Of a stretch of 64,000 bases of DNA, positions 5,766-42,695 are shown one piece after another; position 1 is the first letter of the stretch; each line of letters starts with the position of its first letter. The position numbers and the translations under genes were made by a program. Below the pieces are notes generated by a model. That model had not been told where the DNA came from and ran no database searches. It saw nothing but the letters and a program-made list of their open reading frames with translations. Origin of the DNA: Schmidtea polychroa (lineage: Eukaryota); contig CM097885.1 of assembly GCA_044892525.1 (NCBI GenBank), positions 62,186,001 through 62,250,000 of the forward strand, in the 5' to 3' direction.

Positions 5766-6204
5766 TTAGGATGATGGAACTGACTCGGGTTTTCTTAGCT
5801 TCTCTTGTTCTGTTAGCCAGGCCCATTTCAACTTTTCTCGGGTATTTCGCCCTAGCCGCTTGCGTTTTGGTTTGCTCGCCTGTACCGGTGGGTAGATCTC
5901 GGCCAGTTCCACGGGTAATTGGCGATTCTGATCTTTGAGGGTGTCGTGGATGAACCTCTCGTTCAGCTTGGCCTCGAGCGTGCGCACCTGTAATTTTAGC
6001 GCCCGTATTTCAATTTGATCCTGCTCTGCCAGGGTCTGGAGTTTCAGGATGTGCTGTCCGCTTCTTCATTTCGGCCGGGCTGAACCAGGTGCCCTCGAAT
6101 TCTCGGCACTTCACCTTGAGATTTTCGACTCGGACTTGGAGGTCTTCGGCTTGTTGTTGGGTCTGTTCGCGGTCTTTGCGTAAATTTTTGAACAATTTGA
6201 ACAC
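5766..6204 (-). pseudogene. LTR-borne 'GTWFSP' coiled-coil protein (ORF2), frameshifted near 6050
   Basis: Two track ORFs (6010-6387, 5766-5987) together align to the intact ORF2 at 26328-26813: NLRKDREQ...GTWFSPAEMKK...KPKRKRLGRN. Confidence 0.8.
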
Positions 6205-6406
6205 TGAAACAGGATAATAATAAACTTTCACTACTCTCATCCATATACGTATTGAAATGAGGTCGTCTAAATGGCAAAGGTGCACTATAACAAACAAAGC
6301 CAACAATTGGATACCAAAATAATTTATTACATGAAATTTTGAATAATACCAAAAAGAAAATATAATTAGGTAAAACAAGTCAGACATTAACCATTTTGAT
6401 CTAGGT

Positions 6407-6873
6407 CAGGGCTGTCCAACCTCGGGAAACCAGAGGGCCGCAATGCAAAAAATAACTATTCGGGGGCCGCACACAATGCAAAGAACTTTTATCTAAAATA
6501 AATGGCTAAGGATAGCAAAACGCCTGCCTGTACGGAAAATTTTGGACTCAACACCTTTAGTTGTTAATAATGTATACTCTGGCGCTTGTTTTGAATTCAT
6601 TGGATATTTCTGTCTGCACGGCCTGTCTTAGGACCGCACACCAAAATTAAAAAATGATATTATGTTAATAATTAATTGTACTAATGTTTAAGAAATATTA
6701 TATGGTAAATATTTGATATTAGATATAGATATTGTCAAGAAATGAAAAATGTTATATTTCAATGAGAAATTTTCGGTAGCTTTGCATCGTTTACCAGTAT
6801 ATCGATATCAAATTATAGAGAAGTTCGCGGGCCACACAAAAGTACTTCGCGGGCCGCGGTTTGGACAGGTCTG
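6407..6873. mobile_element. hAT (Charlie-like) MITE, 467 bp
   Basis: TIRs CAGGGCTGTCCAA / CAGACCTGTCCAA; 8-bp TSD ATCTAGGT at 6399-6406 and 6874-6881. Confidence 0.9.
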
Positions 6874-6904
6874 ATCTAGGTTATAGAATAAAATTGTCAC
6901 TGGA

Positions 6905-7197
6905 TTACACTGGATGTTTGCGGGGCCTCTCTCGCTTCCGTGGGGGCGCTTCTGCGTCCATCAACTCTTCCAGTGGAATTCCCTCTTTTTCGGCCCGGAG
7001 CTGGAGCTCGATTCCCCTCAGCTGAAGTTGGGCAGCCTCCACTTCTATTGCTGCCTGGTCGCGGGCCTCCTGTAACAGATCGTTCTTCGGCTCTGTCTCA
7101 ACCCACGCCGGGGCATCGGGCTTTGGGCCACTCCGGATGCCTGGGCCGTAATTATCCAAGTCTAGCAGCCGGTTCCAGTCGTGCCAGAGTGTGACAT
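6905..7197 (-). pseudogene. LTR-borne AT-hook protein (ORF1) with internal deletion/frameshift
   Basis: ATG at 7197 after TTGTAG; the RLRTRYIWY block is missing relative to 27104-27466; the rest aligns (DNYGP...PAWV.TEP...PPRKRERPRK). Confidence 0.75.
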
Positions 7198-39199: not shown

Positions 39200-39979
39200 G
39201 ATGGGATCATCTGCAATTGTTGCGAACGTTCTCATTTCCCCATTCAGTGTCCGCGAGTAATTCATCTAAATCGAAGAACTCGGAGGCATTTTCCTCCCAT
39301 GTTACTCCAGCCGCGGAGATGATTCGCCCTGGGATCCTGAGTGTCAGATCTACTACTGCAGGGTTATTGTTACTGTTAACGGGGTTGTCTGTTGAGGATT
39401 TGCTTTGCTTGACGGACGCCCGCTCCCGTTGTTTTCTTTTGCGTTCGGCACGCGATAGCTGTCGACGCTTGGGTTTTTGACGCCGTTGAGTTATTTTGTG
39501 ATGCAGCAGACGAAAACGCGATATTGGGCTGCGCTTTACTAGTCCCGGTGAAGATAAGGTCCGGACATTTGGGAGAGAGCTCGGTCTCTACGCACTCACG
39601 ACAGGACTTCTTGAACGGAGGTGAAGACTTGGCAGAGGTATCGTGGTGCACGGGAAAAATATTGTCTGCTTCGTTGATAGGGATCTTGACAATTTTCCGC
39701 GTTGTTGCTGCTGTAGATACACTTTGTGCAACGCTTCCGATTGTTCCTTTATCAAACTTCTTTGTGCACGACTCTCGGAGATTAGAGCGTCACGACAATG
39801 CTCGCTACGATATAATTTTTATGCATTTCCTTCATTTGCACTGGGCTGAACCATGTGCCTTCCAGCTCGTCGATTTTGCGCTTGTAACGACCGATCTGCG
39901 TTTGTAAATCTTTAATAATCGAGTTTTTGTCTGCGCAGGAGAAACAAGGACGGAGAACAGGTTTGGCATTTGGTAACAT
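39200..39979 (-). pseudogene. CxxC-'GTWFSP' protein (ORF2 type 2), about 3 frameshifts
   Basis: LRPCFSCADKN...GTWFSPVQMKE, EHCRDAL...QSEALHKVY, IFPVHH, LSRAERKRKQRE and FDLDELLAD occur in successive frames and align to 41937-42695. Confidence 0.8.
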
Positions 39980-41528
39980 ATTGGATCGCTACAAAGAAGA
40001 AAATTAGGATGACTATAACTACAAATCGCTAATCTGATATAACCTTCTCCTCACGGTCGGAACTTCAGCGAGGGAAAAGGACAGGACACCCCGATGAGGA
40101 AAACATTTGCCCCTTTTGACGATTTATCGCTATCCCTTGGTATTTTATTTACAAAAAATCCATCCAACTACTAACATCATCGCCTGACGAAGGCAAATAT
40201 TTTATGAAGATCCTACCATCGTAAAGTTATTGACTCATAAGTTTCCTTTAAAATCCTGAAGTCATCCTTAGATCCGAAATCAAAATGTACAGCGCTAGTT
40301 GATTCCCACAAAGTTTCCCCGTTCACTCCTAACGGTACTCTTACTTGGACACTTAAGGAGTTATATGGGTAAATCGATTTACATTCAATTCAACTATGAC
40401 ACTCGGTTCGAAAATTCTAGTTATTATCTTTAGTGCTGAATTTAATAGTTTCATTACCATTTCAATACTTAGTTTACGCTCTTGACTATGATCTGTTAGG
40501 TTTAACAAGAAAAATTTATAATTATTTATGATAATTGGTTTTAAATTTACTTATTACCAACAATATTGAGTCTAAAATTTCTATCATTAGTTATAAACAT
40601 TAATTTTAAATATCTATCACCATTTGACTACTTAATATTTAAAGTTATCTACTAGTGGGCTTAGAATTTAATACCTACTGTTATCTCTAATTTATCTTAT
40701 TGCGGCACGAAAATCTGAACATGAATCTCTGTGAATTAACACTCACTGCAGTTATACTCGTCTGTTATCACGCACTACGATAGAACTTAAATAGCATATG
40801 TCATGTGGTGGAACAGGTGCTTATCGATTATGTTGCTTCCCACTCATGTTCCGTATAGATATCGCAAACCATCGTTAGAAAACTAAATGTGCGTGTGTAT
40901 CATTCAATGGGATTTTATTTACTACCTCAGGTTGTCTAGAAGATTATTCGATATTCTGTTATAACCTGCTAATTCGCATCTGACTGCAATGTGGTAACTC
41001 GTGATTTCCTTAATGTCTAGTATTTCAACGTTGGAAGATTGTATTGGATCGGCCACACAATATCTACGAATCTTATTTCAGGAGCGAATGTTCCGAATGA
41101 ATCGCAGAAAGGATATTTATTTCGGTAGTACCAGATTTGTTAGATAAATAAAATATCGTCGTGAATATGGTCTTATGATTTAATTCATTTCTGTAAATAT
41201 TAATATCCTATTCCTTGTATGAGTGTCGTAAAGTAAAAATGAAACTCTCGAATCCGGTTTATTAGCGAAAGGTGCAATATGAACTCAAATGTTGAGACGT
41301 TGGAGGTGAGTCTGAACGAATTGTGATTGTAGCGACAAGGGGTCAGATTTACAGATAATATGACTCTCTCGAACACGGCGATTTAATGTTGCGAAATGAT
41401 GATAATGTTGGTATATGTGGGGAAAAAGAAATTTGTTGCACACATCATCATTTCACATCTCACATACCCTGCATCATTACTCCGCTCAGATACTCCCCAT
41501 ACATACACCAAATGATCATGTACATATT

Positions 41529-41675
41529 CCCACGCATGAGCCCGTGGTGATATTCCACGTTGGTGCTGCTCACACGGGTTGGAAAAGGTTAGCAGGTGAG
41601 CCTCTGCCTTAAGACTACTCCTAACCCTTTCTCGATACGGGTTCTACGGTGCCTCAGAAGGTCTTACCCCGTCCC
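41529..41675 (-). ncRNA. Conserved LTR structured RNA element, copy 7
   Basis: GTGTGAGC-AGCACCAA-CGTGG aatatca CCACG-G-GCTCATGC; GGTTAG/CTAACC stem. Confidence 0.8.
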
Positions 41676-41936
41676 ACATACACAATTCGGTCCGACCCTG
41701 GTCCAAGGGGACGACCTTGTATTATCACCTACATTCGACATCATCTTTCCACTCGTATCAACTTCGATATCTCACCTGTTAAAATCAATCATCAGAAACA
41801 ATAAAAGATGTATTAACTTATAACAAATCATTACACGCAGAATAATCAAGAACGGTTTTACATGTAAACATACAGCATTTATAAACACGCAAGTTCACTT
41901 CGGGACCATGCATAGAACAAGGCACCTTTGAATTGA

Positions 41937-42695
41937 TCAATCGAAGGGTTCTCCATCCGCAAGCATTGCGTCGATATCGACCGGCAGTCGTGGGTTAGAA
42001 ATGTACTTGATGCCTTCTGCCGGTATTACACGAAAGATTTCCTTTGATTGGATGGAATGGCTGGAGGATATTTCTCTTATGGTAGATTGAGCTACAGATA
42101 GTGACGCCTCGAGAGCAGCCATCGCATCTCGGCGTTTCTGATTTTTCTCGGCTCGGGTTGGCCGTTTCCGTTTGCGAGACGACGGGGGATTGTCAGTGTG
42201 CGGGGTGACGACGGTTGCCCCCGAAATCGGAGCCAAGATGGGCTCGGTAGGTCCACCTACCAAGGGTTGAGAACCCGATAAGATTGGAGCTGGAATGGGC
42301 GGTAGGCACGATCCATGCCCTTGGCAGCTCGTAGCAGTCGGTTCGGATACTTGATGATGAAGAGGGAAAACGTTCATTTTCTCTATGACGGGGAATTCCC
42401 GTACCCGCTTGGCGAGTTCTGCCTCCGTATAAACCTTGTGGAGGGCTTCTGATTGGGTTTTGATTGTAAGCCGTTGGCATCGGCTTTCCTCCAGCAAGCT
42501 ATCTCTACAATGTTCTAACCGGAGGATTTTCTTTCGTTCCTCCTTCATTTGTGGCGGGGAGAACCACGTACCCTCATAGAGGTCAATTCTCTTTAGAGCC
42601 TCGATGTATAGATGGAGCTGCGCGATATCTGCGTTTTTATCTGCGCAGGAGAAACATGGGCGAAGGGTTTTCTCAGCAGTTGTAGGAGTAGTCAT
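41937..42695 (-). CDS. LTR-borne CxxC-'GTWFSP' protein, 252 aa, intact
   Basis: TTCTTTAG|ATG; LRPCFSCADKN; GTWFSPPQMKE; Pro-rich linker; RKRKRPTR basic patch. Confidence 0.8.
   Translation of the reverse strand: MTTPTTAEKTLRPCFSCADKNADIAQLHLYIEALKRIDLYEGTWFSPPQMKEERKKILRLEHCRDSLLEESRCQRLTIKTQSEALHKVYTEAELAKRVREFPVIEKMNVFPLHHQVSEPTATSCQGHGSCLPPIPAPILSGSQPLVGGPTEPILAPISGATVVTPHTDNPPSSRKRKRPTRAEKNQKRRDAMAALEASLSVAQSTIREISSSHSIQSKEIFRVIPAEGIKYISNPRLPVDIDAMLADGEPFD

Follow-up and report, generated by a model that had tools for sequence, protein, structure and literature searches.

Hinge-motif coiled-coil proteins and an adjacent structured RNA element in probable long terminal repeats of Schmidtea polychroa

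Described systems and the Schmidtea locus

Rev-like proteins export unspliced RNA; they bind a structured element, multimerise and carry a nuclear export signal (NES), as set out in excerpts of PMC3856414. In Rex, an arginine-rich motif provides nuclear localisation signal (NLS) and RNA binding, and its element is located in the long terminal repeat (LTR) next to the poly(A) signal (PMC6714889, in excerpt). Cer1, a Gypsy element of Caenorhabditis, exports via CERV (PMC10309623, in excerpt), which was the only invertebrate Gypsy export regulator turned up in the literature searched. Here we analyse a window of 64,000 nucleotides (nt) from Schmidtea polychroa (assembly GCA_044892525.1, contig CM097885.1, positions 62,186,001 to 62,250,000 of the forward strand; all coordinates below are window positions). 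It contains six copies of a coiled-coil protein with a conserved W-x-x-P hinge, each followed by a conserved, covarying RNA element. With slightly less than even confidence, and by analogy, we tentatively read the hinge protein as an LTR-encoded RNA regulator of the Rev/Rex/CERV kind.

The resemblance to Rex and its response element (RxRE) of human T-cell leukaemia virus, and to Rev and its response element (RRE) of human immunodeficiency virus, consists of a small protein with a basic helix, modelled self-association and a probable spliced mRNA (excerpts of PMC6714889 and PMC3856414). With Rex/RxRE the locus also shares a conserved multi-stem RNA near the polyadenylation signal, here in a probable LTR (PMC6714889, same excerpts). 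In contrast to Rev and Rex, with which we found no sequence or fold homology, the hinge family has a long coiled-coil dimer and a C-terminal basic helix, an NES pattern in two homologues only, a coding exon apparently within the LTR, and a Gypsy-type host element. CERV, as far as its features are given in the excerpted text, is likewise an accessory protein of a Gypsy/Ty3 element with a spliced mRNA, coiled-coil multimerisation and an NLS (PMC10309623). However, its H-M-G three-domain architecture and conserved cysteine loop have no counterpart here, since the hinge model is all-helical and a CxxC motif occurs in only 2 of 18 aligned rows. The serine of the hinge SP is not conserved either. 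The hinge family is not assigned as a member of Rev, Rex or CERV.

The neighbouring large element resembles Burro/GYPSM1 in its fusion glycoprotein in frame before protease, reverse transcriptase, RNase H as well as integrase, its ankyrin and MATH/TRAF cargo, its accessory open reading frames (ORFs) and its room for multi-kb LTRs (PMC6431247, in part). The corresponding part of that review, in contrast, describes no LTR gene, RNA structure or primer-binding site, and its elements have MATH/TRAF in the polyprotein or upstream, whereas the TRAF-like ORF is located 3' of pol here. Additional ORFs of plant LTR retrotransposons are also conserved accessory ORFs, some of them nuclear or coiled-coil proteins, and were proposed to be retroviral-accessory-like; they lie in the internal region, often in antisense, while the hinge ORFs are sense exons apparently in the LTR (PMC7264820, in excerpt). 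The full texts searched, including PMC8532177, PMC11410931, PMC13524379 and PMC7264820, describe no genes, RNA element or primer site in Burro LTRs in the portions covered; Grohme 2018 and the Repbase entry were outside this scope and may annotate the LTRs. The accessory protein family is real, and family and RNA element are apparently undescribed.

The hinge protein family and its exons

A six-frame search of the window with the hinge pattern [GS]TWF[SP]P gave six matches, at the loci which a previous sequence-only reading of this DNA had pointed out:

5766 to 6203, minus strand: copy A, type-1 hinge exon, with a frameshift near 6050
9660 to 10096, minus strand: copy B, type-1 hinge exon (STWFPP), with the basic motif in another frame at 9805-9698
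26328 to 26812, minus strand: copy C, type-1 hinge exon, frame open
35650 to 36119, plus strand: copy D, type-1 hinge exon (P0002), frame open
39207 to 39979, minus strand: copy E, type-2 gene, split into three frame pieces
41937 to 42695, minus strand: copy F, type-2 gene (P0001) of 252 amino acids (aa), frame open, with an ATG directly behind the acceptor AG

In 200 shuffles preserving local composition the pattern, which was derived from the same sequences it was tested on, was matched 0.015 times on average and at most once. A profile search of the window detected no hinge copy beyond A-F. From exon start to stop the frame is uninterrupted in C, D and F and broken in A, B and E.

The family had been defined by the motif GTWFSPx(E/Q)MK, which is exact in four of the six copies; B reads STWFPPAEMK and D reads GTWFSPEAMK. 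The division into two architectures is borne out, because type 1 and type 2 form separate clades (support 95/97) in a tree of 18 rows that leaves out A, P0004 and P0012. A KPKRKRLGRN motif had been ascribed to all type-1 copies. It is present in the hinge frame of C and D (2 of 4), beyond the frameshift in A, and as a related motif in another frame in B. The N-terminal CxxC is found in both type-2 copies, E and F, but is not a family-wide feature. Copy E, previously given as 39200-39979, is split into three frame pieces, and the type-1 loci are exons rather than ORFs, since their homology begins at YAG/TG (the slash marks the boundary) and A and C contain no in-frame ATG before the hinge. The sequence-only reading overlooked the splice acceptors, the RNA element and the C-terminal basic helix as a family-wide feature.

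The hinge frames are under purifying selection. In all nine pairwise comparisons the proportion of synonymous differences (pS, 0.58-1.09, with synonymous sites near saturation) exceeds that of nonsynonymous ones (pN, 0.13-0.38), and C and D differ at codon positions 1/2/3 by 32/23/81 substitutions. All six hinge exons are preceded by a YAG acceptor with a pyrimidine-rich tract of 8-10 pyrimidines per 12 nt, the counting window being displaced by 1-2 nt in four of them; among 2864 background YAG sites at least 8, 9 and 10 pyrimidines occur in 18%, 8% and 3%, respectively. Type-1 exons begin in phase 1. Presumably their start codon is located in an upstream exon, because A and C lack an in-frame ATG before the hinge. 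Candidate promoters and leaders are present upstream of several units, a unit being a copy together with its RNA element (G, described below, has no hinge ORF):

34591 to 34777, plus strand: leader of unit D with the leader motif and donors at 34622 and 34772
7765 to 7858, minus strand: leader of unit A, 75% identical to the D leader over 95 nt
44858 to 45152, minus strand: putative promoter and leader of unit F, with a reverse CCAAT box at 45152, TATA box at 45133, leader motif at about 45026 and donor at 44858
2091 to 2247, minus strand: the same layout in unit G, with a reverse CCAAT box at 2247, TATA box at 2198 and donor at 2091

A 9-mer common to the A and D leaders also precedes F (three occurrences observed; shuffle mean 0.28, maximum 2), and the donor TG/GTAA is common to A, D, F and G. 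A GT..AG joint excising 34622-34769, exactly at the first donor of D, was found in runs X1 and X4 (one contig each, runs of unrecorded type). Judged from these features, the hinge ORFs are probably made from spliced mRNA. One contig of X8, a run only presumed to be RNA, meets the window precisely where the D exon begins (35650), its foreign upstream letters ending in AA and not in AG; this joint may represent a spliced leader or the altered acceptor of a relative.

A profile of the six window rows matched 14 proteins at E ≤ 0.001 among 1.84 billion proteins, with 36.9-151.6 bits in comparison to at most 2.6 bits for reversed-sequence controls. P0003 is a stand-alone type-1 protein of 157 aa from ENA and was the sole match in word-indexed protein searches. 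The other 13 are database gene models; the ten that were looked up are each a single unnamed UniParc record. In ten of the 13 an unrelated domain exceeds its cut-off, and no two of them share the same one, which suggests gene-prediction fusions to a dispersed repeat exon. That the family was not recognised at first sight is confirmed by comparisons with Pfam, PDB sequences, Foldseek (viral and PDB), VIA and the ESM Atlas, none of which gave a known family, and no relative of the hinge protein was found in viral and metagenome contigs. The idea that the profile might instead match a characterised host family led to no such family, only to the gene models just described.

The shared architecture consists of a coiled coil, the W-x-x-P hinge, a second coiled coil, a linker and an Arg/Lys-rich helix; unfused members have 157-252 aa. 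Trp44 and Pro47 are invariant in 18 of 18 rows, followed by Thr43 (16 of 17), Gly42 (14 of 17) and Phe45 (11 of 18), while the Ser is variable. The second helix retains Glu70, Arg72 and Arg75 (15-16 of 17). A basic-helix pattern, fitted after the fact, matches 14 of the 21 sequences or pieces, among them a piece from each of the six window copies, with up to 12 Arg per 20 residues. The other seven comprise four that stop before or inside the helix, B, which has it in another frame, and two with variants. Both clades preserve the spacing of the basic helix, which is strongly Arg-rich in several homologues. A Class-1a-type NES pattern, the one class tested, follows the basic helix in P0008 and P0014; many rows are incomplete. 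Within the acidic tails of the same two proteins a PPxY motif, a WW-domain ligand, is found. Neither a zinc finger at CxxC nor a phospho-site at SP was retained as a reading, because neither motif is conserved. Among the 18 rows a single one matched Pfam REV (PF00424), on its basic stretch (E 7e-4, 19.1 bits; curated cut-off 22).

The AlphaFold2 model of F (252 aa) is all-helical, with helices at residues 17-38, 47-88, 91-100, 103-106 and 181-212. It has a mean predicted local distance difference test score (pLDDT) of 67.6 and a predicted template modelling score (pTM) of 0.33; the Pro-rich linker and the tail are of low confidence. The basic helix corresponds to 181-212 and is separated from the coiled coil by a long flexible linker. 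In the monomer the first two helices resemble generic helical hairpins (best VIA Z 6.9). Two copies of residues 12-112, modelled without an alignment, gave an in-register parallel homodimer with 42-47 in the interface (score 0.56, best control 0.11; agreement between runs 92% of contacts or more; pLDDT 76 or higher). Of 30 solved homopairs 21 attained the dimer mark, as against none of 23 single chains; for eukaryotes the counts are 17 of 29 and none of 30. This result supports self-association of F as a parallel homodimer, with a modelled coiled coil spanning residues 14-88 and kinked at the GTWFSP joint. Monomer and dimer models of F differ in topology, and a coiled coil may attain the mark because it resembles solved ones. 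The motif had been regarded as a conserved interaction surface. The invariant Trp and Pro are in line with conservation, but since the Ser is not invariant and residues 42-47 are located in the modelled self-dimer interface, GTWFSP is likelier a structural joint than a partner-binding epitope.

The structured RNA element and its surroundings

Behind each of the six ORFs, 93-222 nt past an AATAAA-type hexamer (TATAAA in F), a conserved RNA block was found. A seventh copy, G, has neither a hinge ORF nor an AATAAA-type hexamer and is 62-73% identical to the other six:

5390 to 5640, minus strand: RNA element A
9378 to 9584, minus strand: RNA element B, last stem not recovered
25993 to 26232, minus strand: RNA element C
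36269 to 36508, plus strand: RNA element D, lower stem of domain III partly broken
38820 to 38980, minus strand: RNA element E
41406 to 41675, minus strand: RNA element F
1232 to 1485, minus strand: RNA element G, no hinge ORF, probable 5' LTR end
1374, 5499, 9453, 26097, 36406, 38868 and 41567: bulge of domain III in the seven copies

Domain I comprises a short stem, a CC-UUCU...-GG hairpin and a possible pseudoknot of 3 bp. This pseudoknot is unproven because its three pairs, although formed in 21 of 21 cells, display zero covariation. In domain II the stem contains a UA/UCAC internal loop; outer stems of 8-11 bp were recovered with differing sequences in B, C, E, F and G, and in A and D the automatic outer-stem picks are short and off register. 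Domain III has a lower stem, followed by a bulge of 8 nt, the upper stem and a 3' bulge of one base. The lower stem is paired in 53 of 56 cells, all three failures being in D, and its upper stem in 34 of 35; seven of the eight lower-stem positions display at least two pair types, and among 42,288 sampled positions 9 have this geometry. Comparison of the sequences thus identifies a covarying structured element in seven copies. Rfam gave no match near the gathering threshold for the whole window and for three elements alone (best 28 bits), and hammerhead and hepatitis delta virus-like ribozyme readings found no Rfam support. Viral and metagenome contigs contained no match to the RNA pattern; 32 viral loci matched initially proved to be chance 17-mers, with a longest alignment of 23 nt.

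By alignment and folding, ACCA or AACA forms the end of five units (A, C, D, F and G), and a terminal stem closes ahead of it. The layout of domain III resembles that of the epsilon element of hepadnaviruses. The bulge sequence ACCAA recurs at the 3' end of units C, D, F and G and adjoins the position of the primer site in G, so a role of the bulge in priming or strand transfer is possible. Type-1 units close with a stem of 7-9 bp followed by ACCA, similar to a tRNA acceptor arm (5390-5445 in A, z -2.6; 25993-26040; 36460-36508); this ACCA may simply be the CA end of the LTR.

The large element and the primer-binding site are located at opposite ends of the window:

1207 to 1224, minus strand: tRNA-Pro-type primer-binding site, 7 nt behind element G, 16 of 18 nt identical to the murine leukaemia virus site
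46633 to 63654, minus strand: Burro-like giant Gypsy element with a frame of 3506 aa (fusion glycoprotein, protease, reverse transcriptase, RNase H, integrase and ankyrin repeats)

The viral tRNA-Pro site used as query was taken from PMC4587795 (in excerpt), and 100 shuffles gave no match to the pattern. Behind this site the sense strand is rich in A (0.49), as is the sense strand of the large element (0.41-0.43). In the internal region adjoining unit F, env is in frame ahead of pol. The element continues with TRAF-like and coiled-coil ORFs, and unit F lies directly downstream, where the A-rich sense strand of env-pol runs on uninterrupted. An A-rich run, a reverse CCAAT box, a TATA box and a donor are common to F and G, which otherwise have only short motifs in common outside the RNA element. 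The primer-binding site behind G, the position of F after env-pol and the shared layout therefore suggest that G is a 5' LTR and F a 3' LTR. On these grounds the ORF-bearing units are very probably LTRs: F is probably a 3' LTR, A-E would be solo or remnant LTRs, and G the 5' LTR of a relative without the hinge exon. The claim that the family is LTR-encoded thus holds by indirect evidence, whereas the direct marks, an LTR pair and a target-site duplication, were not found. Unit G suggests that the upstream promoter is the principal one. In that case, which is fairly probable, the gene would be located in a long terminal repeat region (R) and the RNA element in the unique 5' region (U5); otherwise the gene would be in the unique 3' region (U3) behind an internal promoter.

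Concerning the large element itself, no gag match was found within the window. A complete RING-to-MATH TRAF-like ORF (48773-50161, minus strand) and three coiled-coil ORFs (within 46633-48554 and at 50251-50610, minus strand) are located 3' of pol.

Beside the type-1 exons a further frame, ORF1, recurs:

27104 to 27466, minus strand: ORF1 of unit C, with an AT-hook-type C terminus
10508 to 11008, minus strand, about 6905 to 7200, minus strand, and about 34985 to 35362, plus strand: ORF1 homologues
24070 to 24360, plus strand: ORF1 remnant

ORF1 comprises two helices and an AT-hook-type end, is mostly preceded by its own acceptor and is under purifying selection. It is probably an alternative last exon of the hinge-exon unit. 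As had been proposed, type 2 lacks it: no ORF1 homologue is located beside E or F. The AT-hook match of ORF1 in B (E 0.006) has 16.8 bits at a cut-off of 17.4. A homologue search limited to proteins of 292-2000 aa, a weak test, yielded none, and a kinship of ORF1 and ORF2 was rejected since their profiles are unrelated (probability 2%).

The remaining features of the window are mostly other repeats:

6407 to 6873: hAT-like insertion between ORF1 and hinge exon of unit A, with imperfect inverted ends of 13 nt and a target-site duplication of 8 bp
8397 to 8984, plus strand: open frame of 195 aa between A and B, no Pfam match above cut-off
17859 to 19851, plus strand: fragment of another Gypsy-like element of simpler build, with a protease match
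21267 to 21959 and 15488 to 17497: a 63-nt tandem array and a GTT-rich array with a 14-nt period
22356 to 23605 and 30323 to 31606, 2786 to 3548 and 24452 to 25342: two dispersed repeat families, 74-86% identity between copies
32910 to 33302, minus strand: hAT transposase fragment
36520 to 38690: DDE_1 transposon remnant between units D and E

Possible functions and their meaning

A Rev/Rex-like role is the best single reading of a protein that has a basic helix and a modelled dimer, is probably made from spliced mRNA and has a structured RNA beside its gene. Each of the six ORFs would be the last exon of a small accessory gene within the long LTRs of Burro-type, env-bearing Gypsy elements. 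From the LTR promoter a short spliced mRNA would be made that ends at the AATAAA-type signal behind the ORF. The hinge dimer, presenting two Arg/Lys-rich helices on flexible linkers, would enter the nucleus and bind the RNA of its own element, most likely at the multi-stem structure between the AATAAA-type signal and the primer-binding site. As a result full-length, intron-containing genomic RNA would be read through, left unspliced and exported. The mode of action would be like that of Rev, Rex or CERV, without homology to them.

Several observations weigh against this proposal. Folding domains I-III gave modest z-scores (-0.4 to -2.9, at or below -2 in four of seven); the case for RNA structure rests on covariation among seven related copies. 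Element G is present without an ORF; the RNA may therefore have nothing to do with the protein and serve as an ordinary structure for packaging or priming. The start codon of type 1 was not found, and none of the 15 joints listed out of 73 lands on a hinge-exon acceptor. The basic patch of C, D and F is Lys-rich (4-6 Arg and 4-6 Lys per 20 residues) and could be a plain NLS, and in these open copies no NES pattern of the class tested was detected. The REV match is below threshold and on a low-complexity stretch and does not place the protein in PF00424.

The acidic tails of type 2 (F, E, P0008, P0013 and P0014, net charge -3 to -13) suit an activator and therefore count against an export regulator for this type. 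An LTR-encoded transcriptional activator comparable to foamy-virus Tas or Tat is conceivable, although we consider it unlikely. In this case the dimer would bind LTR DNA or nascent RNA via its basic helices and recruit co-activators by an acidic-hydrophobic tail, assisted in type 1 by the AT-hook ORF1. Such a function is consistent with the PPxY motifs in two of the tails, the modelled parallel dimer carrying two basic helices and the AT-hook match in B, but type-1 proteins and P0011 are devoid of an acidic tail, the long flexible linker between basic helix and zipper is unlike bZIP geometry, and bZIP_1 was matched in just one of 18 rows (E 0.04). It is rather improbable that the protein is an LTR-encoded nuclear factor targeting the host, for instance silencing or cell death, with the basic patch as import signal only and the RNA as a separate packaging or priming signal. 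The basic-helix spacing kept in both clades and the strongly Arg-rich homologues would exceed the need of an NLS. The Lys-rich patches of the window copies, however, would suit this function, as would the RNA element that G retains without an ORF and the host-directed cargo of the Burro-like element, a TRAF-like gene and ankyrin repeats (cf. PMC6431247, in part).

The nature of the carrier is a further point. The primer-binding site was found for G only, which has no hinge ORF, and no pair of 5' and 3' LTRs was seen within the window, beyond whose edge the Burro-like element runs. Neither a polypurine tract nor the 5' ends of the units were found. Target-site duplications are absent for A and C, the candidates for F and G are 4-nt matches at chance level, and a 4-nt ATAT duplication around D was dropped since it conflicts with repeat cover further upstream. 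Together with the short motifs that are all G and F share beyond the RNA element, these results would fit a separate non-autonomous mobile element which merely shares a 3' RNA structure with these LTRs. The primer-binding site directly behind element G, the unbroken A-rich strand from env-pol into F and the CCAAT-TATA-donor layout common to F and G render this highly improbable. A host gene family or chance open frames are hardly credible and already largely refuted: although the 13 matches are database gene models, ten of them with host or transposase domains, no partner domain recurs among the ten, an indication of mis-joined repeat exons. Moreover, thousands of diverged contigs align to the region (contig depth was not taken as copy number or expression), the frames are under purifying selection, and the reversed controls score far below the matches.

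An extension of the Rev/Rex-like proposal is more doubtful. The LTR would be a self-contained regulatory cassette whose very long R holds a promoter, introns, a poly(A) signal and either a single last exon or two alternative ones, and each solo LTR would be a functional mini-gene. The product would bind the new multi-domain U5 RNA and make the 5' LTR change over from terminating early to read-through and export of the giant genomic RNA, with the many solo LTRs acting in trans on intact elements. An invertebrate Gypsy lineage would then have evolved a Rev/Rex system independently.

In practical terms, the hinge exon contaminates gene models, as the fusions in 10 of 13 database matches demonstrate. 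RNA element and primer-binding site aid the definition of LTR ends, for which a survey is blank in six of six Schmidtea entries in the part consulted (PMC13524379). The finding bears on how very long, intron-containing retroelement RNAs leave the nucleus. It provides a second candidate pair of protein and RNA, unrelated to CERV, in an animal amenable to RNA interference, and is thus directly testable. If true, a spliced gene inside the LTR would make solo LTRs an expressed multigene family.

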